Part shown: positions 14,634 to 64,000 of the stretch, in pieces
Numbering within the stretch: position 1 is the stretch's first letter
Layout: each line of letters begins with the position of its first letter
Assembly: GCA_013115125.1 (NCBI GenBank)
Contig: JABANN010000008.1
Location: forward strand, 62,001-126,000
DNA from: Perkinsus olseni
Lineage: Eukaryota
Direction of reading: 5' to 3'
DNA length: 64,000 bases
The notes under the pieces: model-generated
The model's input: the letters and a program-made list of their open reading frames with translations, nothing else
The model's database searches: none
What the model was told of the DNA's origin: nothing
Program-made: the position numbers and the translations under genes

Positions 14634-15660
14634 TGCAATAGAGTAATTAAAATCGGTGAGATAGAATGGTCTCCTTAAGATGCCAGTTGCTATACAACAT
14701 GTACGACACACCGCTGTTAAACTTTGCCGAACATGTAAGAGTTCAAGTTCACAGTGATAGCGGTGGTCATGTAGTATAGCTTCGCTTACTATGCCGAGTT
14801 CGTATAGTCGTCAAGACGAACCAAGCAGGAAATACGAAGCCGAACAGTAATGCTCTGTACGGGATTACCGCAGTAGGTACTACGACGTAGACATAATCGA
14901 CGCGCGGCATAGCTCCGAGCGTGCACGCTACATTGAGAAAATGCAAGATTCGTAAGATAGGCAAGTGTCGGCGCAGGATCGAAACTGATCGGAAGTTGCT
15001 CGGGGCCCGCGTTCGTCAGGCCTGTGAAGCCGCGTGTAGCATGCTTATTCTACATAATACGACACTATAAACTATAGGGTTCCGCCTCTACACTGCACCG
15101 CTACTGTTGTTGGCCTCTTCTAAAGTCCCCCAGTTGGAAATTCTCAGGTCCACGCGGACACGGCCGGCTGGCAGCGTCAATCCGAATGAGCTGATTTGTA
15201 TGATAAAACTCACTACTGTATGCTCTAATAATCAACCACTGCACTTCGCTCGTCACTCTGCTCTTTCTGCTACCTACATCTTCGTATCTTGGGTTTGTCA
15301 ATCGACTTTTCACGATGGTTCGTGTGGCCTCGGTCACTGCTTACGATGGAATTAGCTATATATCGTTAAACCAGCGGCCGATGCCTGGTGGATTTGAGAA
15401 ACACCTGCCTTGCTCGTCTCTTCACTGGCTTGCACGCGTAGAGGCATTGACGGTTGAGCGAGGTTGTTCGGGCACTACCGTCGTCATCGCACCGGATATC
15501 GGGGTCCTTCTCGGCTGCTGCTCTTCTTCCTTACAGGTTTTGCCTTTCTCGGGATTGTTACCCGTGAAGGCCCATCACCCTGGGTATGGCATAATTCGTC
15601 TTCTGCTCTTAATAAGGCAAGACAATTAATACTGAGAGTGTAATACATCCCACGCCACCG

Positions 15661-15683
15661 CTCCTCATCGTTGTCGCCTTCAG
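15661..15683 (+). promoter_or_regulatory. Candidate splice or spliced-leader trans-splice acceptor upstream of the giant gene
   Basis: Pyrimidine-rich ctcctcatcgttgtcgccttcag ends 12 nt before ATG 15696. A similar tract (gtgtacttctgcag, ending at 4124) precedes UBC6. SL trans-splicing is known in Perkinsus and dinoflagellates; applying it here is inference. Confidence 0.35.
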
Positions 15684-15695
15684 GCTGTTAATAAG

Positions 15696-15825
15696 ATGCA
15701 TTTTCCTATGCACCGCTGGCACTTGATAATATTGTGGCTCACACTTCTGCCACTACAGGTGAGCAGATCGCCGGTTAGTTCCCAGCAAGGCTCACTGCTT
15801 TCCTGCTGCTCAGCTCGTACAGGGA
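15696..15825 (+). other. Predicted N-terminal signal peptide of the giant protein
   Basis: MHFPMHRWHLIILWLTLLPLQ|LVQG-WV: basic n-region, hydrophobic core and a V-x-G cleavage motif, split by intron 15759-15813. Confidence 0.75.
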
Positions 15826-18800
15826 TGGGTTCTTGTTGGACGCCGTGGTGACATAACACTACTAGGCCCGCTCACGGTCGACCCTAGCCCCGCACAGGTA
15901 GGCAAACGCGCTTGAAGCTAGGTAGAAGGCGTCTCTGCACAGGCCTCGAGATTTGCTTTAAATAAGCAAGGCCTGCCACAGTGGGATTTCGTGGCGAAGA
16001 AGGAGCTGACGGGCGTGGAAATGAAGACCGACTTGCACATCATGGCCCACGACATCATCGGTGAGCAATCTGTGTTCTCCGTTTCCCCCTGTAGTGCTAT
16101 CAATAGGCGCGGATCCGGTGTCGGTGCTGATATTGATGCTGGACGATGGAAGAGAAGGAGGCGCTATGATTGCACCCCCAGACGGTTCAGGTAAAAGCAT
16201 TCTCGTGTTGTCGTTCTTGTGTTGATTGACTCATCGTTTACTCAGCTGAGCTGCCGCGGTATTACAAGAAGGCCATATTCAACAGTTCGATGGAGGTGCT
16301 TGATGTGGCAGTTTTCAAGAAGTCGCTCTCGGTAGGACCGGTGATTTACGTCGGAGATGGTACTGAGCACTAACAGGTTGAGGAAGCCGTACACTTCTCG
16401 GCCGCCCTGTCGGTCACTGGAGAGTCGGCCTTTTGGAGGCAAGCTCAGTTCTTTTCGAATCTGTGGATCTCGACCAAGCGACCAGGTGAGAGCGGTATCA
16501 ATCCAGTAATACCTTTGAAGCGTTTGGATGGCTATAGGAAAACCTGATGACCCTGAGGATCCGGACGAGTCTAAACGGCCACAGGTCTCAGTCATGGGCT
16601 TCTCTCGTCTGGGGAACTATGTGTAAGTGTGCCCTCGTTGCTCGCCTCGTCGGTCCCATAGTTGCCCCTTGCTCAGACATATGTACGATCGTGTGGTACT
16701 CGGCTCGACTCTGTCGGTGCGATCCTTCGTTCGGCTTGGAAGCACTATAAGTGTTCAAGAGATCGCCACAGTGGGATCGAGCTTGTCCGTTGAAGTGAGC
16801 TGCTGCAGGGGACGGCCAACCTCTCTGATGGCTGTGCTTTCATCAGGGGTTCATCAACATCGGCAACTCTGAGCCCACCGACCCACAAATTGGGACCCCA
16901 GACTCCGGCTACGGCCTTAGCGTAGGCGCTCATCGTGGAAACACTGGTACGAAACACTCCTTCCATAGGTTTACGGAGCGGCAGTACTTCGCTCGACCGT
17001 CAGCATCTTCGACTACGTGTCCATGGGCAGCTCCCTTTCGGTATACAACTTCGCTAAGCTTGGCAGCGGCCTCTCCCTTTTTAATTCGGCGGTGAGTCGT
17101 CCTCGTCTCTCTCCGATGCGGAATCTTTCCTGCTCAGATGTTCGGGTCGTCGATGTCCGTCTTGGACTATGCAACGTTCGGTAGCTCGGCCTCGATCCGA
17201 ACCTATGCCAGAATTGGCAGTGCGCTCTCCCTGTACGGCACGACACGCCTCGGCAGCCGCCTCTCTGTTCTGGACTGGGTACGGCCACTATTCCTCCCAG
17301 CTGTATCAATTGCCCCTCCTCATCTCAGATCACCCTAGGCAGCTCAGCCTCCATTCGAGCTTCCTTCCGCCTGGGCAGCTTCATGTCTGTTGCTGGTAAG
17401 TTGTGGTACTCTTCTCTACACTGATAAGGTCGTTGTCTGCTGCCAGGTCGAGCCCGCCTAGGGAAATCCCTCACCACGTTGGACTTCATCAACATCGGCA
17501 GCTCACTGTCGTTACAGTCCTTCATGCGGCTCGGCAGTGCGACCTCACTGTAATGACGTCTGCGACTAACGCTCTGCGCCGTCATCAGCTCCTCAGATTC
17601 GGAGCCTCTCGTTTTGGCGCATCCCTGTCCGTCCTCGACTTGGCGACACTGAGCTCATCCCTGAGCCTTCGAGGATTCGCTCGGATTGGCAGCACTTGCA
17701 GCCTCTTCGACCGTGCAGTCCTTGGCTCTAGCTTGAGCGTAAGATCGGTTCTGCCCCCTGACACCCGGCCAAGTGCTCCTTCTCAGGTCCTCGATTTCTC
17801 CACGCTAGGGTCGTCGCTCTCCCTCCAAAAATTCGCACGGAGCGGCTCTTCGATATCGGTATACGGCATGGCTCGCTTCGGCTCATCTCTATCGGGCCTG
17901 GACTTCATCAACCTGGGATCCGCTATGAGTATCCGAGGTTTCACGAGATTCGGTTCGGATCTGTCCTGCTACGGTCTGGCCCGGATCGGTTCGAGCCTCT
18001 CCGCCATAGACTCGATAGCTCTGGGCAGCTCGCTGTCCTTGCGGGCAGCGGCTCGCCTGGGCTCGTCCCTTTCTATGCACAGCTACTTCCGTATGGGTAA
18101 AGGATTCTCGCTGTTGGACACTGCAGCGTTGGGCTCCTCGATCAGTCTGAGAGCTGTCTCAAGGTTCGGAAGTGCTCTGTCGGTGTGCGGTGTTGGACGC
18201 TTCGGCTCGGCGCTGTCTCTCCTGGATGCAGCGACTCTCGGCAGCAGCATGTCACTGCGACAATACGTTAGAGTGGGCAGCTCCCTCTCCTTGGTGTCCC
18301 GTGCTCGTCTTGGCGACGGCCTCTCCGTCCTGGACTACGCACGTGCTGGCAGCTCCTTGTCCCTCCGCTCTCTCGCTAGACTCGGCTCTAGCCTATCTTG
18401 CTACGCTACCACAAGGCTAGGGAGCAGTGCTTCAATCCTAGACCGCATCCATTTGGGATCATCACTGTCGTTAAGGTCCGCGACAAGGGCGGGTTCGAGC
18501 CTCTCCGTATTCGGTCTGGCCCGCCTTGGCAGCTCTGTCTCGGCACTGCACACAGCCACTCTGGGCAGCTCCTTCTCGTTGAGATCCTTCATGAGGATGG
18601 GCTCGGCAGTGTCGGCCTGTGGACTGGCACGATTTGGTTCCTCGTCATCCGTCCTTGATTTCGCCATACTGGGCAGCTCGCTATCTCTACGCCAGATGAG
18701 CCGCCTTGGCAGCGCCCTCTCCCTCCTCGGTATCGGTCGCTTGGCCTCCACGGCCAGTATCCTGGACTACCTTCAACTCGGTAGCAGTCTTTCTGTCCGT

Positions 18801-21800
18801 AACCTAGCCCGCATCGGTAGTGCCCTGTCAACTGCCGGCCTGGCTCGGATAGGAGCTACTATCTCAGCTCTAGACCTGATCAACCTCGGTTCCTCCTTGT
18901 CTGCCCGAGCGTTCGCTCGGCTCGGCTCGTCCCTGTCGACCCACAGTCTCAGCCGATTGGGTGACAGCCTTTCGGCTCTCTCCTTTGCTTTCCTAGGATC
19001 GTCTCTCTCCCTTCGTGGCCAGGCTCGCCTCGGAAGCGCCTTGTCGACTTTTGGCTTGTCCAGACTCGGCTCTTCCCTGTCTGTCCTAGACTACGCCCTT
19101 TGTGGTAGTACGATGTCCTTGCGGTCCTACGCTCGCTTCGGCTCTGCCGTCTCCCTGTTCGGCAGCCTCCGGGCAGGCGCCTCTTCCAGTGTGCTGGACT
19201 TTTCCTCGTTCGGCAGCGCCCTGTCTCTGCGTGGTCTGGCTCGCTTCGGGAGCGCTGTATCATCATTCGGTCTCTGCAGACTAGGTAGTCACCTATCTGT
19301 CGTCAGCGCGGCCCACCTAGGCAGTAGCGTGTCGATGCGGCAATTCTCCCGGCTAGGGAGCGTTCTCAGTGTCTTCAGTGCCTCCAGGCTGGGCCTGACG
19401 CTCTCCACTCTGGACTCCGTAGCCGTCGGCTCAGCCCTCTCTGCGAGGGCCTTCGGTCGTACTGGTAGCTCGGTGTCGGTGTACGGTTGCTCCCGCCTAG
19501 GGTCGAGCCTGTCGGTGTTGGACTTCGGCCTTGGTGGCAGCTCACTCTCCCTTAGAGCATTCGCTCGTCTGGGCAGCTCAGTCTCGCTGCACTACCTTGC
19601 CCGCTTCGGCAACACCCTCAGCTTGCTCGACTTCGCTGCCCTCGGATCCACTCAGTCTTTACGATCCTTTGCTCGCCTCGGCAGCAGCCTTTCCGTTGTT
19701 GGCATGGCCCGCCTGGGCTCGCAAATATCGGTGCTCGACTTCGCCACCTGCGCCTCCTCTCTTTCCTTGAGGACCTTTGCTCGCGCTGGCAGCGGCCTGT
19801 CGGTGTTTTCTGTTGCCAGGATGGGTAGCTCCATCTCAACCCTCGGCTTCATGGCCCTCGGCAGTTCTCTGTCAGTCAGGAACTTCGCTCGCCTTGGCAG
19901 CACTATCAGCGTCTTCAGCCTCTGCCGGATGGGCAGCAGCCTGTCGATAGTAGACTTCACTAACCTTGCCAGTGTGACATCGCTCCGTTCCTTCTCGAGG
20001 TTCGGATCGAGTTGTTCGATTTACGGTATGGCGCGTATAGGCTGCAGTATGTCGGTCCTGGACCTCGTAAACTTCGGCAGTACGATGTCCATCAGATCCA
20101 GCTTGAGGTTCGGCAGCTCCCTCTCTGTGTACGGCAAAGTCCGCCACAGCAGTGCTGTCTCTATGCTAGACATGCTAGCTCTAGGCAGTAGCATGTCCCT
20201 CAGGGCCTTTTTTCGAGCAGGCTCCGCGGTCTCAGTCTTCAGCATGGCACGCTTGGGGAGTATCCTCTCAACATACGACAGCATTACTCTCGGCAGTGCC
20301 CTCTCTTTGCGTGGTCTTATGAAGCTTGGCAGTGCAGTATCGGTGTTCGGCCAGACCAGGTTCGGCTCCCAGCTCTCCAACCTCGGCTTTGCCACGCTCA
20401 GCTCCTCGATGTCGATCCGATCCTTCGCTCGCTTCGGCAGCACCATCTCCCTCCTGGCCACGGCACAGCTGGGCTCGGCCCTCTCTGTTATGACCTTCAC
20501 TGCACTCGGGAGCGCGCTGTCGCTGAGGTCGATGGGTCGTGTAGGCAGTCAGATCTCAACCTACGGCGTGTCGAGGTTTGGCAGCAGCATCTCCGTGCTA
20601 GACTTCGTAGCTGTTGGTAGTGCTCTCTCCCTTCGAGCACACATCCGGGCCGGAAGCACTCTCTCAGTGGCAGCTGCAGCCAGGTTCGCTCACAGCCTCT
20701 CGGTACTGGACTACCTCGCCCTGGGCAGTACGATGAGTATCCGATCCAGCTCTAGGCTGGGCAGTACTCTCTCAGTGTACTCCACCTCAAGGCTGGGGAG
20801 CTCCTTGTCCACCCTGGGTTGTGTCACCCTTGCCTCCGCCCTCTCCTTGCGGTCCTTGGTCCGCATGGGCTCGACTGTGTCCCTCTTCGGAACGACCCGT
20901 CTAGGCTCGGGCTTCAGCGTCCTGGACCTGAGCGCCCTAGGATCCTGTCTGTCAGTCCGGGGGGCTATAAGAGCCGGCAGCACCATTTCGGTCTACGGCA
21001 CTTCTACCCTGGGCTCTGCAGCTTCCGTTCTAGACTTCACCGCTCTGGGCTCTGCTCTGTCTCTAAGGAACTTCGCCCGCTTCGGTAGCCAGATCTCAGT
21101 ATACGGTATGAGTCGGATGGGGGACTCAGTCTCCGTGCTGGACTTCGTCCATCTTGGCAGTGCCTTCTCCCTCAGAGGGCACACCCGAATCGGTTCGGCC
21201 TTCTCGGTGGCCGGTCTGGCTCGACTCGGCTGCTCGATGTCAGTGCTGGACTACGTGACTCTGGGCTCGACGCTCTCTCTCCAACAGCATGCGAGATTCG
21301 GTCGTGCTGCATCAGTCTTCTCGACAGCCAGGCTGGGCCTCACGGCATCGGTGCTCGACTGTGTTCACCTCGGTAGCTCCCTCTCCATGCGCTCCCTGGC
21401 AAGGCTAGGATCGACATTGTCCACATTCGCCTCGGCACGCCTGGGCCAGGGTCTGTCTGTGTGCGACTTCTCCCACCTCGGCAGTGCCCTCTCGGTCCGG
21501 TCTGTGATGCGGCTCGGCTCGGCGTTCTCGGCCTTCCGTGGCGCCCGTATAAGCGGCAGCTCCTCAGTCTTGGACTTCCTTGCCTTGGGGTCGTCCATGT
21601 CCCTCCGTGGGGTGGCAAGGCTAGGCTCTACCCTCTCACTGGTTGGTACAGCCAGGCTGGCCAGCTCGACTTCAATCCTGGACTGGGGAGCCCTTGGCAG
21701 TTCGCTATCCTTGCGAGCCATTGCTCGCCTGGGATCGAGTCTCTCCTCGTTTGGAAGTGCTGATATCGGCTCCAGTGCTTCAATCCTCGGTTACAGCCTG

Positions 21801-24800
21801 ATCGGTAGCTCCCTATCTCTGCGTGGACTGTTGAGAGCCGGCAGTGCATTTTCGGTCTATGGGGGTGCTCGACTCGGTCTCTCTCTGAGTACGGTCGACC
21901 TCGTTTCCCTCGGCAGTGCCCTGTCGCTCCGTGGCTTCATGCGTTCGGGCAGCAGTCTGTCACTGCACGCCTCGGCCAGGTTTGGGTCGCTTATCAGCTC
22001 TTTGGACCACACCTGGCTGGGCAGCTCACTGTCCCTCAGAGCTGTCGGCAGGTTTGGTAGTTCCCTATCAGCCTATGGCTCGGCACGACTCGGAAGCGAC
22101 TTGTCCATGCTAGCCTACGCGACTCTGGGCTCAACCCTCTCCGTGCGCTCCCTCGCTCGGGCGGGTAGTGCTCTCTCAGTCTTCGGAGGCTCCCGTCTTG
22201 GCTCGTCAGCTTCGGTCTTCGACTACGTCCATGTCGGCTCATCATTATCACTACGCTCCTACGCTAGGCTGGGCAGCTCCCTCTCCGTTTACGGCTCCAC
22301 GCATCTATCGGACTACTTCTCAGCCCGCCAGCTATGCGATCTTGGCTCGACACTGTCCGTGCGGGCGACAGGACGCCTTGGCTCGGGACTCTCCGTGTTC
22401 GCCACCTCGAGGCTCGGCAGTTCGCTGTCAACGCTGGACTACGTCGTCCTGGGCAGCTCCCTGTCGGTCAGAAGCTGCGCTAGGCTCGGCAGCGACCTCT
22501 CGGTGTACTCATGGACGAGGCTCGGCGATAAGCTATCAGTCCTGGACTACAGCGGTCTTGGCAGCGCCCTGTCCATCCGCTCCTACTCCAGACTAGGCAG
22601 TACCTTTTCGATCCACAGTTCACTCTGGGCTGGCTCTGTTATCAGTGCCCGTGGCATCCTCAAGCTTGGGAGCACCCTAAGTGCGTTCTCCTACACTAGG
22701 TTTGGCTCCACCATGTCCCTCTTTGATGCCACTACTTTGGGCAGCACCTTGAGCCTTCGTTCTTCAGCTCGTCTGGGGTCTGACATGTCGGTCTACGGCC
22801 TAGCCAGGTTGGGAGGCTCTCTTTCGGTGCTGTACCACAGTCATCTAGGCAGCTCCCTTTCACTGAGGAGCTTCGCTAGGCTGGGCAGCGGTGTGTCGGC
22901 CTACGATCGAGCCCGTCTCGGGTCGTCCGTGTCGATCCTCGACTTCCTGCATCTGGGCAGCTCCTTGTCTCTGCAGGCTCACGCCAGGCTTGGCAGCTCT
23001 CTGTCAGTCTACGACTGCACCAGACTCGGCCGATCTGTGACAGTTCTGGACTTCCTCCAGCTCGGGAGTACTCTTAGCCTACGTGCAACGGCCCGGCTTG
23101 GCAGCACTCTGTCAGCGTACGGGGTAGCAAGGTTCGGAGCCTCTCTATCAGCCTTGGATTACACAGTGATCTCAAGCTCGCTATCCCTGCGTGCTTTCAC
23201 TCGGCTGGGCAGTACACTGTCGACCTTCGCCACGACTCGCTGCGGAAGCTCTCTGTCCACTCTGGGCTCCGTGCACCTGGGCAGCGCCTTGTCCATTAGG
23301 GGCGTCACTCGGGGTGGGTCGGCTCTATCTCTCTTCGGTCTGGGGAGACTAGGCTCCACGCTGTCCACACTGGACTCGGTCGAGCTTGGCAGCACTCTCT
23401 CACTGAGGTCCTTCTCCCGGCTCGGGTCGTATCTGTCGACCTTCGGCGAGACTAGGCTCGGCAGTCGTATGTCTTTGGTCGAGTTCGCCTCTCTCGGGAG
23501 TAGCCTATCACTCCGTTCCACAGCTAGGCTCGGATCAGCGCTGTCGATGGTGTCCCTGTTCCGAGCCGGTAGTAGTGGATCCATTCTCGACTTCGTGATG
23601 CTAAGTTCGACAATGTCCCTGAGGTCATTTGTGAGGTTCGGCAGTGCTGTCAGCGTGTACGGCTTGGCCCGCTTCGGCAGCGTTCTCTCGGCCCTCGACT
23701 TCGTTGAGCTTGGGTCCACTCTCTCTATAAGGTCCTTATCAAGGCTGGGCAGCCACGTCTCAGTGTACGGACTGTCAAGGCTCGGCGATGCCCTGTCGGT
23801 CATGGACTACGCTGCTACAGGGAGCTCCCTCAGCCTACGGTCCCTCGTCCGTATGGGCTCCTCCTTGTCGGTGTACACTCATGCTCGAGTTGGCGGGTCT
23901 ATGTCGGTGCTAGACTACCTCATCCTCGGCTCTTCCCTCTCCCTTCGTAACTCCCTGCGAGTTGGCAGCTCCCTGTCGCTGCTAGGCAGGGCAAGGATCG
24001 GTTCCTCGGTGTCCATAGTGGACTTCTCCCACCTTGGATCATCGCTCTCCTTGCGTAGTGTGACTAGGCTTGGCAGCAGCCTCTCGGTATACGACCAAGC
24101 GAGGATAGCGGGCTCCCTGTCGGTCCTAGACTACCTCATCCTCGGCAGCTGCCTGTCCTTACGTGGTGTCGCCCGACTGGGCAGCTCAGTGTCCATCACC
24201 GGAGAGCTCAGAGCCGTAGCACCGATATCGGTCACTGACTTCTTCCAGATTGGCTCTGGTCTTTCGATCCGCTCGTACGGTCGTCTCGGCAGCAGCCTGT
24301 CTGTCTTCGGCGTGGCTCGTTTCGGCTCCTCCCTCTCCTTGGTGGACTTCACGCACCTCGGCTCATCGATCTCCATCCGAAGCTTCTCCCGCTTCGGGAG
24401 CTGCCTGTCTGCCTTTGGCCTTGCCAGGATCGGAGGCTCAATCTCCGTCCTTGACTTCGCGAAGCTGTCCTCGAGTATGTCACTGCGGTCCCTTGCTCGG
24501 CTCGGCTCGACCCTCTCGGTCTTCGACGGGGCTCGTTTCGGCAGCACGATGAGCGTCATGCACTTCGCCTCCTTGGGCAGCGCCCTTTCCATCCGAAAGC
24601 TCCTCCGCGTTGGGAGCTCAATGTCGCTGCTCGAGGGAGCTCGGTTGAGCTCCAGCGTATCCATCCTGGACTTCGCTACTCTGGGCAGTAGTCTCTCGCT
24701 GAGAGCCTTCACAAGGTTCGGCAGCAGCCTTTCTACTTTCGGTCGTGCCAGGGTTGGAGAGAGTCTCTCGGCGTGTGGGCAAGCCTCTCTCAGCAGCAGT

Positions 24801-27800
24801 ATGTCACTGAGATCGTTTGCGCGGTTGGGGTCTAGTCTTTCGGCCTTCGGATCCTGTCGTTTCGGAGGCAGCGTGTCGACGCTGGACTTCGTCCATCTGG
24901 GCAGCTCTCTGAGCCTGCGAGGGTTCTCTCGGCTTGGCAGCGCTCTATCCACTGTGGGGAGGACCAGACTGGCCTCCAGTACCAGCATACTCGACTTCCT
25001 TCACCTCGGCAGCTCGATGTCCGTCAGATCGCTGGCGCGACTAGGCAGCTCTCTTTCCATGTTCGGCCTGGCCAGGCTTGGTAGTTCCGTGTCGGTCCTC
25101 GCCTTTGCCAACGTCGGCAGCTCCTGCTCGCTGCGGAGTTACGTCCGCCTCGGGTCGAGGCTGTCAGTCTTCAGCCTGATGCGCTTCGGCAGCAGCATGT
25201 CTCTGCTCGACAGCGCATCGTTTGGGTCGACCCTATCCCTCCGGGCCGTCGCTCGTGCGGGCTCTACTGCCTCGGTCATCGGCCTTGCCTGGCTCGGCAG
25301 CTCGATGTCCGTTCTTGACTACACCAACGTCGGCTCCTCCCTTTCGCTGAGGACCTTTGCCCGAGTCGGCAGTGCTCTAACAGTTTTCTCGGTAGCAAGG
25401 CTTGGGAGTAGCTCATCCACGCTGGATTGGGTAAGCCTTGGTAGCTCTCAGTCTCTCCGCAGCTTCTTCCGGATGGGGTCCACCATATCGCTCTTCGGTG
25501 CGGCTCGGTTCGGCAGCTCCCTGACCATGCTCAACTACGCTACTCTCGGCTCATCCCTCAGCTTGCGCTCCTACGTCCGCTTCGGGTCTGCCTTGTCAGT
25601 GGCCGATGGTATCAGGACGGGTGCGTACCTGTCAACAGTGTCCGAGACCCACCTTGGCAGCTCCCTCTCCACACGAGCCTTCGTTCGCTTGGGCAGCTCT
25701 TTGTCGGCGTTAGGGTGCCTGCGGCTGGGATCTTCCTTATCGCTGCTCGACTTCGCCTGCCTGTCCAGCGCCATGTCCCTTCGGAACTTCGCTCGGGTTG
25801 GTTCGACGGTATCCATCCTGTCGGTATCAAGACTTGGCAGCTCCTTATCGATATTCGACTTCGCCACATTGGGCAGTGCTCTATCGCTGCGTTCCTTCGG
25901 TCGCTTCGGCAGTAGTGTCAGCTCGTTCGGCCTGGCTCGGCTTGGACTGTCCTTGAGCGCCTTGGACTACGCATCCTTCGGTAGCTGTGTCTCATTGAGG
26001 TCAGTGGCTCGTCTGGGTAGCTCATGCTCGGCCTTCGCCGCCAACAGGCTCGGCTCGGCGGTGTCTGTAGTGGACTTCACCCATCTGGGCAGCTCCCTGT
26101 CCCTACGTGAGTTCGCCAGGCTGGGCAGCGCCGTATCGGTACTCAGCGCAGCCAGGCTCGGGGATGTTGTATCGGTCCTGAGCTTCACCGAGGTGGCCAG
26201 CGGTCTGTCCTTAAGAGGCTTTGCCAGGCTCGGCTCTACGTGCTCAGTGATGGCCAAGGCTTACTTCGGCTCTACTCTGACTGTCCTTAATGCCGCTCAT
26301 CTGAGCAGCTCTCTGAGTCTAGCAAGGTTTGCCCGCTTCGGCAGTGGATTCTCCATTCTGGGCGTGGCCAGGCTGGGTTCGTCCTTCTCGGTCTTCGACG
26401 GCGGCTACATGGGCAGCTCCCTGTCGCTGCGTAGCTACGCCAGGCTGGGTTCCTGCCAGAGCATCTGCGGCGTCACCCGGGTAAGCTCAGCCTGCTCTGT
26501 TCTCGACTACTTCCACCTCGGAAGCTCACTATCTCTGCGGGACTCCACCCGAATGGGCAGTTCGGTCTCATTATTCGGCCTTGCGCGACTAGGAAGCAGC
26601 TTATCGACGGTGGACTTCACGACCCTATCGAGCTCCCTCTCCATCAGAGCCTTTGCGAGGGTGGGCAGCAGCCTATCTACTGTGTCGACTGTCCGCTTCG
26701 GGGAGCAGCTGTCGGCCGTGGATGTCGCTAACCTGGGCTCTTCTCTCTCCTTGCGCAACTTCCTCCGTATTGGAGGCCGTATCTCTGCCTTCGATATGGC
26801 CAGGCTCGGCAGTACCATGTCGATCCTCGATGCCGTGTACCTCGGCAGCTCCCTCTCTGTCCGGGACTTCGCTCGAGTAGGGTCCTCGATCAGTACGGTT
26901 GGTATGGCCCGGATCGGCTCCCAGACCTCCATAATGCACGAGACAGCTCTCGCCTCGTCGCTTTCCCTACGGACCTTCGCCAGGATGGGCAGCACCTGCT
27001 CGATGTTCGGCTCAGCTCGCCTTGGGTCAGCCTTGAGTGTTCTATCTTTCGCCTCCTTCGGCAGTACCCTGTCCCTGAGAGGCCAGGCACGGCTCGGCAG
27101 TCAGTGTTCCCTCTTCGGTACCTCAAGGTTCGGCTATGACGTCTCCATAATGGAGTCGGCCCTCTTGGGCTCATCTCTGTCTCTGCGTGCGGCAGCTCGG
27201 CTAGGCTCGAGTATCTCCGTCCAGGGTGGGTCGCGGCATGGTGGTTGCATGAGCGCTATGGCTAATGTAGAGCTCGGGAGCTCTCTGTCGTTGAGAGCAT
27301 TCACGAGGCTTGGAAGCGGCCTGTCGGTGTTCGAGACCTCGAGACTGGGTGGCTCCCTCTCTGCCCTCAACTATGTGGCTGTGTCAAGCTCTCTTTCTTT
27401 GCGGGGCTGCGTCAGGCTCGGCAGCACACTGAGTATTTTCGACGGGTCTCGGCTCGGTGGGTCACTATCATCTTTAGCCCATACCACCATAGGCAGCTCC
27501 CTGTCGCTGCGCTCCTTCACAAGGATGGGCTTGACCCTCTCCCTCATGGGCATGGCCCGCTTCGGTGACTCTATCAGCCTCGTGGACTTCGCCACATTCA
27601 GCTCGTCGCTGTCACTGCGCCAGTTGGCCCGCCTTGGCAGCTCCCTCTCCGTGTCGAGTCGAGCTAAGATATGCTCGGACATGAGCATACTGGATTTCCT
27701 TCACCTAGGGTCCTCTCTATCAGTCCGTACGATGGTCCGGCTGTCCAGCTCCCTCAGTCTCGTCGGAGCCGCCCGGTTGGCCAACACGATGTCGGTGCTG

Positions 27801-30800
27801 GACTTCCTCCAGCTTGGCAGCAGTCTGTCGGTCAGGACCACAGCGAGGCTTGGGTCCGGCATCTCCATCGTCGGCCTGGCCCGGGTTGGCTCAGCAGTCA
27901 GCTCAGTTGGCCGCTGCCATGTAGGGTCGGCTCTCTCCACCCGGAGCTTCGTTCGGTTCGGCAGCGCTCTATCTGTCTACGGCATGGCTCGCATCGGCAG
28001 TCCACTCTCGGCCCTCGACTGCACAGCATTGGGCAGCGCCTTCTCCCTTCGAGCTGCAGCGAGGGTTGGCAGCTCCTTATCGACATTCGGAACCACCAGA
28101 CTCGGTGCCGCGATCTCTGCGGCTGACGCTACCTCCCTCGGCAGCTCGCTATCACTCCGGTCCACGGCAAGGTTGGGCTCTACTGTGTCCTTGTTCGGCC
28201 TGGCCCGTTTCGGCGGCAGCCTCAGTGCCCTGGACCTAGTGGCGATAGGCAGCACCGTCTCCTTGCGGAGTGCCTCCCGGCTTGGTTCGGGCCTCTCAGT
28301 ATTCGGCAAGACTCGTTTCTGCGGCTCGAACTCCGTGATGGACTTCGTTACCGTCGGCAGCGCTCTCTCGGTCCGGCAGTACGCCCGCTACGGAAGCACC
28401 CTGTCGGTAGCATGCGCTGCTCACTTCGGATCATGCCTCTCGGTATTGGACTACCTCGCTATGGGTAGTTCCCTGTCTACCCGAGCTCTCTGCCGTATAG
28501 GTTCGGGGCTGTCCATGCTGGGCAGTGCCCGTTTCAGCTCCACTATGAGCCTGATGGAGCAGGCTGCTCTAGGGAGCGCCCTCTCAGTACGGTACATGGC
28601 CAGGATCGGCTCCTCGATCTCGACCCTTAGTACAGCTAGATTCGGTGCTAGCCAGTCTACTACAGACTTCATCCTGATGGGGTCGGCTCTCAGTGTGAGG
28701 TGCCTTGCACGTATTGGATCATCGCTGTCGGTGGTCGGTCAAACGAGGATCTCCGGCGGTCTCAGTGTGGTGGACTTCCTGCACCTCGGCAGCTCACTAT
28801 CGCTCAGGAAGCTAGTGCGGGTGGGGTCCTCGCTTAGCACGGTCGGAGCGGCCCGCCTAGGCTCCTCTCTCAGTGCTTTGGACTTCGTCCATCTGGCCAG
28901 CAGCCTGTCGCTGAGGAACTTCGTCCGGATGGGCTCAACGCTGTCGGCCTTCTCGTCTTTGCGTCTGGCCAGCTCAGTCTCTATCCTCGACTTTGCCTCC
29001 CTCGGCAGCACGGTATCTCTATCAGGCTTCGCTAGATTCGGTTCATCCCTTAGCAGTCTCGGTGTGGGTCGACTGGGGGGCGGTTTCTCAGTGCTGGACG
29101 CCACCTCCCTCGGGAGTACCCTCTCTCTCCGGAGCATGGCTCGCTTCGGCAGTAGCCTTAGTGTCCTCGGCTCTGCCCGACTCGGCGCTGCGATCTCGGC
29201 CGTCGACTTCGCCAACCTAGGCAGTGCACTGTCCATACGGTTCTCGACGAAGGTTGGGAGCAGCTGCTCTCTACTCGGCGTGACACGCGTTGGCTCGTCC
29301 CTCACCGTCCTAGGCTTGGTCAACTTCGGATCTTCCTTATCGGTTCGGCAATTCGTCAGAGCCGGCAGCTCCCTGTCTGTCGTCTCTCACGGCAGAGTCG
29401 GCGGTTTCCTCAGCGGTATGGACTTTGCTACTCTCGGTAGCTCGCTGTCTCTCCGGACGTACGGTCGCATCGGCAGCTCCATCAGCGCACATGCTAGCAC
29501 GCGCATCGGCAGGGCACTATCAACGGTCTCTCAAGTCCACCTAGGCAGCAGCTTGTCGCTCAGATCCTGCGGTCGCCTTGGTAGCTCTCTGAGTCTTCTC
29601 GGCTGTGCTAGGTTTGGGTCTGTACTCACTGTAGTCGCCCAGTCCCATCTCGGCTCATCACTGTCCATCAGATCCTTCAGTCGACTAGGAAGTGCCCTCT
29701 CCTGCTACGGTACGGCCCGCCTCGGCAGCAGTGTCTCGGTCTTCGACGCCGTCAGCTTCGGCTCGACGCTATCGATGCGCCAGGCGGCTCGTATGGGCAG
29801 CACTCTCTCCTTGTTCGCCACGGCTAGGTTAGGAGCCGCCTGCTCCGCGTTGGACTTCCTGCAGCTCGGCAGCTCGCTATCACTCCGCAACGTAGCCCGT
29901 ATTGGCAGCATGGTATCGGCCTTCGGCGGTGCGCGGTTCGGGTCATTGGTCAGTACAGTAGACTTGGTGACAGTCAGCAGCTCAGTCAGCATGCGCAGCT
30001 TCTCCCGGCTGGGTTCTGGCATGTCTGTCTATGGCTTCGCTCGCATCGGCAGCAGTGTCTCCTCCTTCGACTTCGTCAACCTCGGCAGTGCCTTCTCTAT
30101 CCGCGGCGCTATGAGGATGGGGTCAGCTCTGTCGCTGTTCGGATCGGCCCGACTCGGCTCGGCACTCTCTGTTCTGGACTTTGCCACCGCGGGCTCGAGC
30201 CTTTCCTTGAGGAGTTTCAGCCGCTTCGGCTCGTCTCTCTCGACTTTCGGAGGTGCCAGGCTGGGCTGCTCTCTTTCTGCGGTGGACTTCGCCACTCTCG
30301 CGTCAACCCTATCAGTGCGGTCGGCTTCTCGGTTAGGCGACGGTCTGAGCGTTCTCGGCAGAGTGTCACACGGCGACCGGACCTCTATTATGGACTTCTG
30401 TGCCTTGGCCAGCTCGGTGTCTTTGCGGGCAATGGCCAAGTTCGGATCTGCCGTATCGGTTCTCAGTACGGCTAGGCTCGGCTCATCGATGTCGGTTTTA
30501 GGGTTCTCCTTGCTCGGCAGCTCCCTTTCGCTGAGGTCCGCGGCGCGGTTCGGCAGTGGCCTCTCGTTAGAGGGCGTGCATAGGATGAGGAGCTCTCTAT
30601 CCGCACTGGACTTCGTCCACTTCTCAAGTGCATTATCCCTGCGCAGCTTCACTCGGTCAGGCAGCGCAGTGTCGCTGTTCGGGGTCTCGAGGATGGGCAG
30701 CTCCTTCTCCGTCTTCGACTGGGCTACTATCGGTAGCGCTCTCTCGATCCGTGGGGTCGTCCGCTCCGGCAACACAGTGTCCATCGTCGGGGCAACTCGA

Positions 30801-33800
30801 CTCGGTGTCCTCTCTGTGATGGATCTATCTGCTCTCGGCTCCTCGCTGTCGCTGCGCTCGACTGCCAAGTTGGGCAGCTCTTACTCGCTCTTCGGGGCAT
30901 CTCGGCTCGGCTCCCAGCTGTCGGTTATCGACTTGGTCAATCTCGGCTCGGCTCTGTCCCTCCGGGCCATGGTCAAGCTCGGCAGCAACCTCTCTTTATT
31001 CTCTCTGGCTCGCCTCGGCTCAGCTCTCAGCGTCTGTGATTTCTCCACCTTTAGCAGCTCCATCTCGGTAAGGCACTTCCTCCGGGTTGGCAGCGCGATG
31101 TCTACCTTTGGCCTCGCTCGATTAGGCAGTGCTCTGTCGGTGCTAGACCAGGTATCGCTTGGGTCGAGCCTCTCCGTGCAGGGGGTTCTCAAGCTAGGCA
31201 GCGCCGCGACCTTCTGCCAGACAAATATCCAGTCGGCCTTGTCAATTCTGGACTACGTCAACTTGGGATCGAGCCTGTCCATCCGCAACTTCGCTCGGTT
31301 GGGCAGCAGCCTCTCTGTCGCTTCTCTCGGCAGGATCGGCGATAGCATGTCCGTGGTGGGCTTCTCTCACTTCGGCAGCTCCCTTTCGCTGAGGTCCATC
31401 ACCCGTCTAGGGAGTGCCCTCAGCTTGACGGGCTGCTCACGACTCGGCAAGGAGATATCAAGCTTCGACTACGCCGCTCTCGGCTCCGCTCTATCCCTTC
31501 GAGCCATGGCGCGTTTCGGCAGCGACATTTCGACTTTCGGTCTGGCTAGGGTCGGCTCGGTCGTCTCCGTTCTCGGAGCTGCTCACCTCGGCAGTACCCT
31601 GTCCTTGCGCAACTTCGCTCGCATCGGCAGCTCGGTGTCGGCCATGCTGAGCTCACAGGTCGGAGGGTCCATGAGCATCCTGGACTACCTAGCTCTCGGG
31701 TCCTGTGCCTCCCTCCGGAGTTTGGTCAGGTTGGGTTCGGCCCTTTCGGTCCTGGGAGTGTCTAGGTTCGGATCTGCGATGTCGGTAATGGACTGCGTGT
31801 TCCTCGGTTCCAGCGCCTCGGTGAGGGCCTTCTCGAGGATGGGCAGCACTGCCTCGGTCTACGGCCTGATGAAGCTCGGCAGCAGCATGTCAGTGCTATC
31901 CTCCACCACTCTAGCTTCCTCTCTGAGCCTTCGGCAACTGCTTCGGATCGGCAGCGGCGTGTCGGTGCTTGAGACTCTGCGTCTCGGCCATACGCTAAGT
32001 GCTCTGGATGCCACGACCCTAGGTTCTAGCCTCTCCCTGAGGGCTGCCTTCAGAGCAGGCTCCACTGTCTCAATCCTTAAGACCTGTCGTATAGGTCAGG
32101 ACTGCTCTGTTGCCGGTCAGAAGCAGATCGGCAGCTGTTTATCGACCCGAAGCTTCGTCAGACTCGGCTCGGGTCTTACAGTGTATGGTCTAACTAGACT
32201 TGGCAGCGCCTTGACCATCCTAGACTTCGTCCAGATGGGCTCCGCGACCTCCCTGAGGTCCTTCATTCGCGCCGGCAGCTCTCTCAGCGTTGGCAGCATG
32301 GCCCGTCTCGGAGCATCGCTGTCTGTCTTCGATATGGTATCTTTCGGCAGCACTCTGTCCCTGCGTAACGTAGCACGCGCTGGGTCGGCTCTCTCCTGTT
32401 TCTCCTTGGCCCGGTTCGGATCTGTTCTCTCCATTTTCGATGCGACTACCCTCGGCTCGACTCTGTCTTTGAGATCTTACGTCCGAGCAGGCAGCCAGCT
32501 GAGCACCTTCGGCTCTGTGAAATTCGGCAGCTCCATGTCCACTCTCGGGTCGGCCTCCGTCGGTAGCACCCTATCGGTGAGGTCCTTCTCTAGACTCGGC
32601 AGCGCCGTATCAGCCTACGGTGCAGCACAGGTCGGTGGACTCGCTTCTGCCCTTGGAACAGCTTCCCTGGGCAGCACTCTAAGCGTGCTGGATGCGGGCT
32701 CCTTCGGCTCCGCTCTGTCGCTGCGTTCCTATGCCAGGCTGGGTAACAGCCTCTCGGCTCTAGGCTGCGCTCACTTCGGCAGTACCCTGTCACTGCGGTC
32801 TGGTGCGCGCATGGGCAGTGCTATGTCAGTCTGGGGCTACGCTAAGTTCGGAGGCTCGGCATCGGTTGCGGACCTGGCCAGCTTGGGCAGTAACCTCTCC
32901 GTCCGTGCTTTCGTGCGCATCGGCAGTTCACTCTCGGCACGTGCTAGGTCGAGGCTTGGTGGGTCGGCGAGCGTCCTTGACTATGTCGTCCTCGGTAGCA
33001 CTCTGTCGTTGAGAGCTTTCACTCGACTGGGCTCTGCTCTCTCGACGCTGGGTGGTCACCGTCTCGGAGGCGCCCTCTCAGCTCTCGACTGCGTGGCATT
33101 GGGGAGCTCACTCTCGCTTCGAGACTTGGTACGCGTCGGTAGCTCAGTATCAGTTTACGCAGCCACTCGCTTCGGCGACGCCCTCTCAGTCCTGGACTTC
33201 ACGCACATGGGCAGCACTTTGTCAGTACGATCCACTCAGAAACTTGGCTCTGCATTATCCCTCTTTGGCCTGGCTCGCCAAGGATCGAGCACTTCCATCT
33301 TCGACTATGTGTCCCTTGGCTCGAGTCTGTCGCTTCGCCACCATGCCCGTCTAGGAGGTTCTCTCTCCGCTTACGGTGCGGTTAGGCTCGGGTCTTCACT
33401 CTCGGGTGGTGACTGGGTTTACGCTGGTTCCTGCCTCTCCGCCCGGTCCTTCACCCGGCTTGGCAGCTCCCTCAGCGTAGCTGCCATATCAAGATTCGGC
33501 GAGTCCGTCTCCCTGTTCGACTGGGCGTCCATGGGCAGCGCTATGTCTCTGCGATCCGTCGCTAGGTTCGGCAGCTGCCTCTCCGTCTTCGGCATGACCC
33601 GTTTTGGTAGCTCCCTCAGTGTCCTTGAGTATACCGCCCTATCGAGCAGCCTTTCCTTGCGGGGCTTGGTGAGGTTGGGCAGTCGGCTATCTGTGTATGA
33701 TGCTACAAGACTTGGAAGTGTGCTCTCTGTCGTGGATACGGTCACCTTGGCAAGCGCGCTCTCCCTACGATCATTCGCTCGAGCTGGCAGCTCCCTCAGC

Positions 33801-36800
33801 ATATTAGGAGCGTGCAAGCTCTCCAGCCAGCTCACGGTTCTGGCGCAGGCCGGCTTCGGCAGTACTCTGTCGTTGCGATCCTTCGCTCGTCTTGGTTCAT
33901 CGCTGAGCCTCTACGGCAGCAGCAGGCTTGGCAGCAGTGTTACTGTCCTGGACGCGTCCATGCTGGGCAGCTCACTATCGCTTCATCACTTTGCAAGGTT
34001 CGGCGGTCAGCTCTCGGCCTTCGGGACTGCGCGGCTAGGAGATGTGACTAGTACCCTCGGCTCTGCGGCTCTCGGCAGCTCTCTGTCTCTGCGACGCTTC
34101 GCCAGGCTCGGCAGCGGGCTGTCTGTCCATGTTGCGAGCAGGATGGGTTCCTCAACTTCTTCGCTGGGCTTCGCTACACTGAGTAGCTCCCTGTCGTTGA
34201 GGTCTCTGGCTCGGTTTGGAAGCACCCTCAGTGTTGCCGCGGCTTCACGGTTCGGAGAGTCCTTGTCCCTGCTCGACATGGCCTCTCTCGGTTCGACATT
34301 TTCTACCAAGTCTCTAGGCCGTATTGGTAGCGCTCTATCAGTATTCGCCGGGGCTCGGCTCGGTGACACCCTGTCGCTGCTTAACGCTGCAGCTCTCGGC
34401 AGCTCCCTCTCCCTAAGGGGTTGTGCCAGAGCAGGCTCGAGGCTGTCGGTCTTCTCGGCTACCCGGTTTGGCAGTTCCGTCAGCACTGCAGACTTCCTCC
34501 TTCTCGGGAGCGCTCTGTCAGTCCGGTCCTTCAGCCGTCTCGGGTCATCCCTGTCGATCTTCGGCGCCGGCCGCTACGGCAGCTCGATGTCGATATTCGA
34601 CTTCGTCAATATGGGCAGCACTGTGTCCCTTCGAGCGTATCTCCGCATTGGGAGTAGCTTGTCGGTGATGGAGTCCGTCCGGTTCGGTGACAGCCTCTCT
34701 GTTCTGGACTACACCACGCTGGCCTCCTCGCTGTCCTTACGAGAGCTTATTCGTCTCGGCAGCTCCCTGTCAACCGTTGGTTGTGCTAGACTAGGAGCCG
34801 CCCTGAGCGTCCTCGACATGGGGCACCTCGGAAGCTCCCTATCTCTGAGAGGGTTCATGAGAGCCGGGAGCACAGTGTCTGTATTCGGTACAGCGCGGCT
34901 TGGCAGCACTTCATCCACTATCGATCATGTGTGGCTGGGCAGCTCGCTCTCGGTGAGGAGTCTAGCCCGCTTCGGCAGCGGCTGCTCTGCCTACGGTCTT
35001 GCCCGCTTTGGCAGTTCCCTGACAGCTCTGGACTACACTACCCTCGGGTCATCTCTGTCGGTTCGCTCCTTCATGAGAGCTGGCAGTAATGTTTCTATCA
35101 TGGACTACCTGGCCCTGGGGAGCTCCCTTTCTGTGAGAGGCACCGCTAGGCTCGGTAGCGATCTCTCTGTCGCCGGCCTAACCCGCTTCGAATCGGCCTT
35201 CTCGACCATCGATGCGTTGACTCTAGGCAGTACCCTCTCCCTGACTGGGTTCGCCAGGTTCGGCAGGAGAGTGTCTTTATTCGACTATTCTAGTCTGGGT
35301 AGCAGCTTGTCTTTACGCGGCCTCGCGAGGCTCGGCAGCGGCTGCTCAGTACTCGACGGCGCTCGGCTCGGGTCGTCTCTGACAGTTGTGAGCCAGACGC
35401 ATCTGGGCAGCTCCCTGTCGATGCGGTCCTTCGCTAGGGTCTCCGGCAGTGCGTCCGTCTTGGCCGCGAATGCCCTTGGTAGCTCACTGTCACTGCGTGG
35501 ATTGGCGAGGTTCGGTAGCTCGCTGTCGATCTTCGGTACTACAGGCGTCGCCGATGCCCTCAGCGCTTTCGGCTCCGCTACTCTTGGCAGTTCTCTCTCG
35601 CTGAGAGCCTTTGCCCGCGTTGGCTCGGCTGTGTCCGTACTGGGAGTATCTCGCCTGGGCGATCAGATCTCCGCGATGTGCAAAGCTCAGTTCGGATCTT
35701 CCCTGTCGATTCGCAGTTTTGTGAAGGCTGGGAGCTCCTTCTCTGCTCTGGACGCCTCTGAGTTCGGCAGCTCTTTGTCGTTGAGGAGCTTCCTGCGATC
35801 GGGCAGCACACTGTCGGCCTTGGGAGGGGCGAGATTGGGTCACTCCCTCACCGTCCTCGACCAGGTCGCCCTCGGTAGCAGTCTTTCTGTGCGGACTTGT
35901 ACCAGATTCGGAAGCGCAGTCAGTGTCTTGTCTGACGCTCGCGTCGGTGGGGCCCTCTCAGCGCTGGACACGGCACGCCTCGGCCAAGCCCTGTCGGTGC
36001 TGGACTTCGTCCATCTTGGCAGCTCCCTCTCAATCAGAGGCTTCGCTCGTCTCGGTAGCTTTGTCTCTGTTTGCTCTACGTCCAGACTTGGTGACAGCCT
36101 CAGTGCGGTTGGTGCGACACACCTCGGCAGTGCTCTATCCTTGAGGGCTGCAGCGAGGATCGGTAGCTCAATTTCGGCCTTGTCCGGAGCCCGATTGGGA
36201 CTGTTCCTCTCAGTGGTTGATCAGGCGAGTCTCGGAAGTGCTACGTCACTGCGTAGCTTCTCCAGACTCGGCAGTTCCCTCTCCGTCCTCTCGACCGCTA
36301 GGCTCGGCGCCGCGTTGAGCGCAGTGGACTGCATCACCCTCGGCAGCAGCCTATCGCTGCGCAGCACTGGTCGTGTGGGCAGCGGTGTCTCCACTCTGGG
36401 TCTCGTTCGAGTAGGTTCTTCTCTCTCGGTCCTCGACTGGGCCAGGATCGGAGACTCTCTGTCGGTTGTGTCGGCAGCGAGCTTTGGTAGCACTCTATCG
36501 GTCCGAAGCTTCGCAAGGCTAGGACGGAGCATCAGCACTGTTGACTTCGCCCAACTCGGTAGTTCCCTCTCGGCCAGGTCTCATGCCCGGTTAGGCTCCA
36601 AGCTCAGCGTCCTTGACTACGTCCTTCTAGGCAGTGCTATGTCGCTCCGCTGCGCCTTGCGTGTCGGTAGCCACCTGTCGGCGGTTGGCTTGGCACGCGC
36701 CTCGGGTCTTTCTATTATTGAACAGTCTGAGCTCGGGAGCTCCCTGTCCCTGAGGGCCTTCGCCAGGCTGGCATCCTCGGCATCGGTGCTGGACTACTTG

Positions 36801-63800: not shown

Positions 63801-64000
63801 GACCTCTCCGTCGTGGGTGTCGCTAAGATCGGTTCGGCTCTATCTGCTATTGGTAGTGCTGAGCTCGGCTCTTCACTATCACTGAGGTCGTTCGCTCGAC
63901 TGGGCTCGAAGCTGACCGCCCTCGACTACGTCAACTTCGGTTCATCTCTGAGCCTCCGCTGCAGTGCCCGGCTGGGATCCTACATGTCCGTCCTCGGCCG
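15696..64000 (+). CDS. Giant secreted 12-residue-repeat protein (at least ~15,870 aa, 3'-partial); predicted beta-solenoid/fibre
   Basis: Exons 15696-15758, 15814-15897, 15943-16060, 16107-16190, 16246-16331, 16377-16485, 16538-16622, 16677-16794, 16847-16921, 16969-17091, 17138-17278, 17329-17395, 17447-17549, 17597-17738 and 17787->64000. All introns are GT-AG and phase-compatible (466 codons before the last exon). The last exon reads in one frame (codon starts divisible by 3), checked at 17787, 30000, 45000, 55020 and 63900. The ORF track lists no terminated ORF in that frame after 17399, consistent with no stop codon. Confidence 0.92.
15759..17786 (+). other. Cluster of 14 short spliceosomal introns (45-55 nt)
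   Basis: Lengths 55, 45, 46, 55, 45, 52, 54, 52, 47, 46, 50, 51, 47 and 48 nt, all GT(A/G)...YAG. Removing them gives a continuous frame and restores the 12-residue register. Confidence 0.85.
17787..64000 (+). repeat. Coding tandem repeat: ~36-nt (12-codon) degenerate unit, ~1,280 copies, with a 108-nt higher-order period
   Basis: Translation such as LGSSLSLRSFAR/LGSGVSAYDRAR/LGSSVSILDFLH continues to the window end. Units are conserved as peptide, not as DNA. Confidence 0.95.

Follow-up and report, generated by a model that had tools for sequence, protein, structure and literature searches.

Viral fibers and tailspikes that end in a Peptidase_S74 domain (PF13884), among them proteins of the phage K1F endosialidase type and fibers of polinton-like and giant viruses, are the closest described counterparts of the protein analyzed here. 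For endosialidase-type proteins, trimerization of the S74 domain, nucleation of folding, and self-cleavage are established. In the accessible text of PMC12220804, S74-ended modular proteins are described as trimeric fibers that are ubiquitous in the polinton-like viruses of many protists, and S74 as a domain that trimerizes, nucleates the folding of the preceding fiber, and then self-cleaves at a Ser-Lys dyad. We compare these proteins here with a giant gene of Perkinsus olseni, which lies in a stretch of 64,000 nucleotides (GenBank assembly GCA_013115125.1, contig JABANN010000008.1, positions 62,001 to 126,000 of the forward strand), referred to below as the window. The likeness runs through the small relatives of this gene, which share its repeat and also have PF13884, an SDRRLK S...K site, and a helical tail. 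As far as the same text goes, the polinton-like virus fibers are laid out in the same way, with a C-terminal chaperone behind a repetitive shaft, and the modules that it names for them (Laminin_G_3, collagen, adenovirus fiber, phage tail repeat, and BppL_N) do not include the LGSSLS shaft. Unlike viral S74 fibers, the giant gene has spliceosomal introns of the host type and adjoins a metabolic gene. Its shaft, at more than 15,400 residues, is several times as long as the longest relative among the matches listed (4,226 residues), and its C-terminus lies outside the window.

Other comparisons concern fold rather than family. Helices of the two-partner secretion (TPS), EtpA, SufD, and pectate lyase type have about 19 to 25 residues per turn and belong to bacterial secreted proteins. 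Together with FHA and CsgA, they resemble the AlphaFold2 model discussed below in the parallel stacking of short repeats. This resemblance, including that to the TPS/EtpA adhesins, is structural only, with no sequence match in Pfam or the PDB, and in contrast to these proteins the present one is eukaryotic, is encoded with introns, has an inferred N-terminus without a signal peptide, and has a modeled rung of 36 residues. The left-handed beta-helix (LbH) enzymes LpxA, LpxD, and GlmU, which are trimers, and the bactofilins have in common with it a hexapeptide-like alternation of aliphatic residues with Gly/Ser turns, but here the unit has 12 rather than 6 residues, there are three unit types, and there is no enzymatic or polymerization context. 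A looser analogy is offered by ice-nucleation proteins of the InaZ type, with a 16/48-residue periodicity and Ser/Thr-x-Ser/Thr ladders on a flat face, and by the 12-residue antifreeze beta-helices of insects, as a hierarchical tandem periodicity (12/36) is also present in the giant protein; however, the giant protein is strongly basic, and a Pfam scan gave no Ice_nucleation match.

In the window, frame +1 is free of stops from 17403 to the window end (15,532 codons, open at the 3' side). Within it, the giant exon at 17787-63998 on the plus strand comprises 15,404 codons and 0 stops over more than 46 kb (46.2 kb) and is still open where the window ends. In the remaining five frames, stops number 237 to 782 and the longest open stretch is 132 to 359 codons. 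The exon product is composed mainly of serine (24%), leucine (16%), glycine (11%), alanine (10%), arginine (8%), and valine (8%), and the giant protein carries a net charge of +861. Prolines, of which a first-pass annotation of this DNA had noticed about six in the exon, number exactly 6, with 2 of them in 17787-32600. Between 18 kb and 64 kb, the DNA composition is uniform, with a GC content of 0.59 to 0.61 and an AT skew of about -0.3.

The repeat grammar of the product was analyzed by autocorrelation and tiling. Over the exon, lags 12, 24, and 36 show residue identities of 0.34, 0.37, and 0.405, respectively, and the value for lag 36 rises to 0.49 within 17787-32600, compared with 0.126 after shuffling (z = 56 to 118; for lag 12, z = 56 to 90), and lags 11 and 13 fall under chance. 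Dynamic-programming tiling resolves 1,278 units of 12 residues and leaves over 196 residues, some of which belong to the start of the frame (~130 codons), where intron sequence is read through. Three unit types are distinguished, namely A ([LF]GSSLSLRSFAR, 454 units), B ([LF]GS[SGA]LSV[FLY]G.AR, 293 units), and C ([LF]GS[SK]LSVLD[FY].., 523 units). Positions 1, 5, and 7 of the unit are hydrophobic in 80 to 92% of cases; position 2 is G, D, N, or P in 84%; position 9 is one of these four in 52% and Ser or Thr in a further 29%; and position 6 is Ser or Thr in 100% of about 1,270 units, with Gly2 and Ser3 near-invariant. Repeats of constant length, fixed buried hydrophobic residues, and fixed turn residues, which are marks of the beta-solenoid class, are all found here.

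A single register is kept from residue ~60 to residue ~4,400, and, counted along the frame that opens at 17403, 11-residue units first occur at residues 4477 and 4608 (~30,834 and 31,227). Canonical A-to-B-to-C transitions account for 88 to 95% of cases across units 0 to 480 (17787 to ~34,800) and for 52 to 70% past ~34,800, the figure for zone 2 taken separately being 63 to 80%. Three zones of the exon are distinguished (Table 1). The first-pass annotation had described A, B, and C units cycling in order over 17787..32600, with hydrophobic residues at fixed positions and a Gly-Ser turn, and had expected autocorrelation peaks at 12 and 36; the same three consensus types, the fixed positions, and both peaks were recovered, the interval proved correct and even slightly conservative, and every observed detail that was checked held up. 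Its extension of a strict grammar to all ~15,400 residues went too far, as strict order holds for about the first third of them.

In zone 3, the added 14-residue unit (D) is nearly always preceded by "A B", and its copies lie 38 to 518 residues apart. The same zone contains higher-order repeats, one 158 residues long (8 times) and one 364 residues long (copies 55 to 56% identical). The spacings of the 14-residue unit are not confined to multiples of three units, which a simple stacking lattice does not explain. A separate observation concerns the sequence R-[LF]-G-S, an RxxS motif that occurs several hundred times, and the 747 A and B units that end in Arg or Lys. The recurrence of RxxS, the invariant Ser/Thr6, and the charge of +861 suggest, as far as sequence can indicate, mass phosphorylation or glycosylation, or else binding to polyanions.

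The repeat copies are old and are conserved at the protein level. The 118 super-repeats of the strict zone are 46.5% identical in DNA, codon position 2 standing at 60% and position 3 at 34%; no pair exceeds 69%, and the conserved serines use codons of both the AGY and the TCN family. The low overall and third-position identity and the mixed serine codons point to long-standing selection on the protein rather than to a young satellite. Direct-repeat families in the DNA have copies that are mostly 60 to 81% identical to their reference copies. The open reading frame (ORF) is best explained as a genuine nuclear gene of an alveolate-type protist that is transcribed. A Logan DNA contig of 92,988 nt is identical to 11501-31500 without any difference, and all sampled words are present in six DNA runs, although both the contig and the runs may be the source data of the window and are then not independent of it. 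By its coordinates, this contig reaches ~12.9 kb past the window end, with short repeat-like matches ~4.1 kb past it, which makes a full protein of more than 16,800 residues probable. The final 240 residues within the window are still repeats, without an S74 motif.

The giant protein is homologous to a large family in which the same shaft is frequently S74-ended. With a 600-residue slice as query, a full HMMER run yielded 1,313 cluster representatives at E<=1e-3, of which 388 reached E<=1e-10 and 40 reached E<=1e-30. Peptidase_S74 is found at E<=1e-5 in 49 of the best 150 representatives (23/50, 20/69, and 6/31), and PF13884 is precomputed in 81 of 120 listed matches of near length (330 to 1,050 residues). 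Further domains among the best 150 are Bactofilin (8), Laminin_G_3 (2), and fn3, Kelch, ArfGap, and MgtE_N (1 each). Many relatives are transcriptome ORFs or short environmental contigs, and the family is abundant in dinoflagellate transcriptomes. Named relatives of near length come from Alexandrium monilatum, A. catenella, and Symbiodinium, and a longer one, with thrombospondin domains, from Vitrella brassicaformis.

The short members of the family are 40 to 60% identical to the query slice and keep both the A/B/C order and the SDRRLK site. Ordinary members have 17 to 24 A/B/C units; in four short members, three with a Met start and one cut at its 5' side, these units begin at or near the first residue. 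The units are followed by a short neck, the motif LHG.W...SDRRLK, the S74 core, and a charged helical tail of coiled-coil type. The C-terminal parts of short members match many tail-fiber PHROGs (best phrog_1980, E 1.3e-16). The repeat of the giant gene itself matches phage families of no known function (phrog_36281, E 2.5e-11; phrog_5353, E 5.8e-7), to which an AT-rich relative of 2,783 residues is linked at 8e-48 and 3.8e-29, respectively. The shaft family has no Pfam model and appears to be undescribed in print, as literature searches by repeat motif, and by S74 or endosialidase together with dinoflagellates or alveolates, did not find it described.

Some additional observations bear on the breadth of the family. 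In the very long members P0015, P0040, P0068, P0100, P0111, and P0146 (2,300 to 3,600 residues), the shaft matches Bactofilin, and several of them are S74-ended; the two whose composition was checked, P0015 and P0040, are Asn-rich, with 13% Asn. The ESM Atlas clusters nearest to the repeat are mostly assigned to Nucleocytoviricota with a score of 0.96, which at a low recognition value (761) is to be taken as a lead only. Both giant viruses and their hosts may have members of the family.

Structure prediction was carried out for two slices of the giant protein. With a 14-row alignment of in-register 288-residue slices, 45 to 52% identical, AlphaFold2 returned an all-beta model without helix, at a predicted local distance difference test (pLDDT) of 68.7 and a predicted template modeling score of 0.64, the five models ranging in pLDDT from 30.6 to 68.7. 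Secondary structure assigned by DSSP repeats every 36 residues in this model, with a break at G2-S3(-S4) in every unit; the strands of A and B then run unbroken for 9 to 10 residues, and only C is interrupted a second time, at L8-D9. An exhaustive structural comparison places parallel beta-helices at the top, led by EtpA (Z 17.0, rmsd 1.9 Å, 181 residues). Further matches include a SufB/D-like chain (Z 15.4; SufB/D-like matches overall Z 14 to 15), the TPS domains of HxuA and FHA (Z 14 to 15), CsgA (Z 13.9), and also pectinases, tailspikes, and SufD, with beta-helix matches lying at Z 12 to 17. The alignments pair model residues 1 to 270 of 288 with 160 to 250 target residues. The pentapeptide-repeat structure 6fls aligns over 167 residues at an rmsd of 3.6, and as a pentapeptide-repeat coil has 20 residues, this stretch corresponds to ~8.4 coils. 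Alignment spans and target coil sizes together imply ~8 rungs per 288 residues, and thus one 36-residue super-repeat appears to form one rung of the model.

The second slice, the 364-residue higher-order repeat of the last zone (three rows, 55 to 56% identical), was predicted with strands only, most units having two short strands per 12 residues in this low-confidence model. A three-copy prediction of the 288-residue slice scored 0.00; it left the alignment unused and the single-chain fold uncertain and speaks neither for nor against binding. Co-variation at 12, 24, and 36 residues in the strict zone, evaluated by unit type against shuffles, gave mean diagonal Z values of -0.04 to 0.43; the sole signals, at Z 3 to 4.2, couple position 8 to positions 2 to 4 of the next unit and do not separate the stacking models. 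Foldseek with the first model found nothing at E<=1e-3 in the PDB (best CsgA, 1.4e-2) or in BFVD (best a Tetraselmis virus 1 protein, 1.7e-3), and sequence searches of Pfam and the PDB with slices of the giant protein gave nothing above cut-offs.

When the model evidence is placed beside the sequence marks, the beta-solenoid reading proposed in the first-pass annotation is reasonable and moderately supported: the all-beta first slice and the EtpA match agree with it, at moderate confidence and for one slice of two. The AlphaFold and Foldseek comparison that it had suggested bore fruit in its first half, the all-beta slice, and not in its second, and none of the outcomes that it had named as refuting (confident helix, disorder, or multiple membrane-spanning segments) appeared. 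A continuous rod, likewise proposed, is upheld at the level of sequence and not by the poorly folded slice from the second half.

We favor, with the balance of probability about level, the reading that the giant protein is a very long beta-structured fiber shaft, most likely a homotrimeric beta-helical one. As a third to two-thirds of the relatives are S74-ended and carry the same shaft units, the giant protein can be regarded as a shaft of the same type and would probably be a homotrimer; the S74 ends of the relatives lend real indirect support to this trimer reading, which was one of the options in the first-pass annotation. Each 12-residue unit would contribute a Gly-Ser turn and one long or two short beta-strands, with Leu1, Leu5, and Leu/Val7 buried and Ser, Arg, and Phe exposed at the surface, and ~1,280 stacked units would yield a rod free of globular interruptions. 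Within the shaft family, the gene represents an extreme expansion. If the family layout operates as in phage, polinton-like virus, and giant virus fibers, the homotrimer would fold from the C-terminus, where an S74 end would lie past the window, and the chaperone would then be cut off. Since a signal peptide is missing from the inferred N-terminus, the fiber would be assembled in the cytoplasm, and a structural role could be envisaged.

A fuller version of this reading is more tentative, although conceivable. Here, a cellular gene would have taken over a viral S74-fiber shaft and expanded it about fifty-fold, to more than 15,400 and probably more than 16,800 residues. The product would be an intertwined homotrimeric beta-helix of 0.6 to 1.2 micrometers that assembles in the cytoplasm and serves as a cytoskeletal element, projectile, or ruler, its length being set by repeat number. 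Roles in flagellar hairs, trichocysts, and ice binding were considered, and no evidence was found for any of them.

Several results weigh against the favored fiber-shaft reading. The 15,532 codons within the window encode neither an SD.R.K nor an HG.W motif, and because the 3' end of the gene lies outside the window, an S74 end on the giant protein is an extrapolation. Among the best 150 relatives, 101 have no S74 match, some of them probably being fragments, and long genomic relatives (1,100 to 1,800 residues, on large contigs) mostly lack S74 as well. No relative of 5,445 to 17,325 residues was present among 459 candidates scored, and IMG/VR viral contigs searched with an exon slice and with the family member P0043 gave no confirmed relative by a method that finds close ones only. 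On the structural side, the slice from the second half of the exon reached a pLDDT of only 39.7, and the model that did fold is a single-chain solenoid in which like residues Arg8 and Arg12 are stacked directly. The transcript evidence, finally, comes from contigs of runs whose "RNA" label is a guess, no run being on record as RNA, and one of these runs, X7, also covers the intergenic stretch.

Taken at face value, the AlphaFold2 geometry would make the protein a single-chain beta-solenoid with one 36-residue super-repeat per rung, in which A and B form long faces and C a kinked third. Such a protein, without trimer or S74 and about 205 nm long, could serve as a cytoplasmic filament or spacer, an alternative that we regard as unlikely. 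It would account directly for the DSSP period of 36 with a G2-S3 turn in every unit and an L8-D9 break in C only, for the ~8 rungs per 288 residues implied by the structural alignments and general coil sizes of their targets, and for the N-terminus without a signal peptide. However, confidence in the model is moderate and its five versions are spread widely, and a monomer run is blind to an intertwined trimer. Stacking of like on like would also produce Arg ladders at 4.8 Å, which in a protein with this net charge renders the single-chain geometry physically doubtful, and to our knowledge a loop-free rung of 36 residues exceeds those of solved regular solenoids. In the second half, moreover, D units recur at 3, 5, 6, 8, 9, 10, 11, 13, and 17 units, and with spacings that are not multiples of three a fixed three-face lattice is excluded there.

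Similarly improbable in our assessment is a triangular beta-helix of the LbH or bactofilin kind, alone or packed into trimers, with hexapeptide sides and 18 residues per turn, in which 36 would be the least common multiple of 12 and 18 and the rod would measure ~0.41 micrometers. Each unit does have two places that favor a turn, G2-S3 and position 9, with a distance of six to seven residues between them, and the autocorrelation of hydrophobicity at lags 6 and 18 amounts to 0.20 and 0.18, whereas residue identity at these two lags is under chance. The alignment of P0043 with LpxA is nearly gapless over 175 residues, a weak match at E 0.024 (LpxA chains 0.024 to 0.04), but LbH chains fit the AlphaFold2 model only at an rmsd of ~11 Å. 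The Bactofilin profile scores above its cut-off, at up to 79.6 bits, in 8 of the best 150 relatives, and some sources automatically name family members LpxA or LpxD; two 600-residue slices of the giant protein, however, match neither Hexapep nor Bactofilin (PF04519) in Pfam at E<=1. The two short strands per 12 residues in the second model would suit hexapeptide sides, and the alternation of small (G2, S4, S6) with large (R8, F10, R12) surface residues would leave no Arg ladders, yet Leu at position 5 occupies a site where the LbH motif expects a small residue. In both the 18-residue and the intertwined geometries, unlike units would stack on each other without Arg8/Arg12 ladders, and the 36-residue period would then be a consequence of the geometry.

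An ORF without a structural role, whether a runaway of evolution (a repeat that has expanded and drifts, or a pseudogene held open by composition) or an artifact of assembly, is very improbable: the extreme strand composition across the exon, the failure to find a relative of comparable size, and thin expression evidence could be cited for it, but 0 stops stand against the hundreds in the other five frames, Ser/Thr is kept at position 6 in every unit while third codon positions are 34% identical, introns are spliced, the Logan contig, possibly not independent, matches exactly, and the repeat copies are too diverged in DNA for collapse or inflation in assembly.

The length of the rod depends on which stacking is assumed. 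For 15,404 residues, the rod would measure 205 nm if a single chain used 36 residues for each rung and 411 nm if a triangular turn took 18. A triple beta-helix would reach 616 nm if each chain contributed one 12-residue unit to a layer, and 1,232 nm if its sides were hexapeptides. Rod length would therefore lie in the range of 0.2 to 1.2 micrometers, depending on the inferred rise per residue. The first-pass annotation had listed 0.4, 0.6, and 1.2 micrometers; the sole usable model, at ~36 residues per rung, gives a value outside that list. The comparison with flagellar hairs that it attached to the largest value found no support; the inferred N-terminus carries no signal peptide.

The 5' region of the gene is summarized with the zones of the giant exon in Table 1. 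Repeat units occur in short stretches and shifting frames between 16,680 and 17,738, and an exon at ~16847-16946 carries the non-repeat insert FINIGNSEPTDPQIGTPDSGYG. A nine-exon GT..AG model is open from the ATG at 16594, although 192 combinations of donors and acceptors keep the frame, so that several junctions are ambiguous; among the junctions of the early short exons, only the donor at 17549 is RNA-supported. The inferred N-terminus (MGFSRLGNYV..., followed by repeats) has no signal peptide and no membrane segment.

Table 1. Coordinates of the features of the giant gene in the window
Feature	Position	Strand	Description and basis
Putative first coding exon	16594..16622	+	Begins with ATG (MGFSRLGNYV...), followed by a GTAAGT donor; inferred from sequence
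About six short exons	16662..17549	+	12-residue units in changing frames, introns of ~30-60 nt; from stop-to-stop ORFs in three frames
Intron, 47 nt, GT..AG	17550..17596	+	Junction 17549^17597 from the loose ends of an X11 contig: past 17549 its letters continue as those from 17597 on, and ahead of 17597 they are those that end at 17549
Short exon	17597..17738	+	In the frame of the giant ORF; sequence and RNA-like contigs
Intron, 48 nt, in-frame GT..AG	17739..17786	+	Sequence and X11 record 11
Zone 1 of giant exon	17787..34800 (end approximate)	+	Near-strict A-B-C cycle, 36-residue super-repeat
Zone 2 of giant exon	34801..43022 (boundaries approximate)	+	Relaxed; mixed ABC and AC runs, occasional 11-residue units
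Zone 3 of giant exon	43023..63998	+	Fourth, 14-residue unit [VIL]GSVYKLSVIAxxx added; open at window end

Position 17787 is a genuine exon start. Excision of the intron immediately before it yields a perfect C unit, LGSSLS|VLDFST, and the match of X11 record 11 begins at 17787, its first 152 letters mapping elsewhere. In three RNA-like runs, the 91-nt intron of the neighboring gene at 11552-11642 is spliced out, and the DNA contig is unspliced there. The giant exon is covered by RNA-like runs at low depth, and over 11501-31500 depth is present in 29 of 30 bins for X7, 10 for X10, and 9 for X11, contig depth being a quantity that cannot rank expression. X10 and X11 have zero depth in the bins of 12168-15502 and appreciable depth from the 16170-16836 bin onward (X11 0.16 in 15503-16169). 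The evidence for transcription of the giant exon is thus modest.

The neighboring gene at 6167-11386 on the minus strand, with a further exon past its intron at 11552-11642, combines pyruvate:ferredoxin oxidoreductase domains with flavodoxin/FAD/NAD(P) reductase domains and is, judged by these domains, of the pyruvate:NADP+ oxidoreductase type. Between the two genes, X7 contig depth at 12168-16169 rises to as much as 258 (14169-14835), with essentially none in X10 and X11, and this interval may hold an unannotated transcript or a small gene. On the other side of the neighboring gene, an isolated peptide, GSSASVLDVAVLGSSLSL, is encoded in one frame at ~5500-5560 on the plus strand; it may represent a short exon or a remnant belonging to a further member of this repeat family.

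If the product of the giant gene exists as predicted, few proteins that stem from one exon would be larger, and no longer regular beta-helical rod would have been proposed to date. Nature would then have provided a test of the length to which a beta-solenoid can grow. The family of 1,313 cluster representatives joins a shaft of 12/36-residue periodicity to a self-cleaving chaperone of viral fibers. It raises the question of whether its members are parts of endogenous viruses or whether alveolates have adopted a viral fiber architecture for structures of their own.

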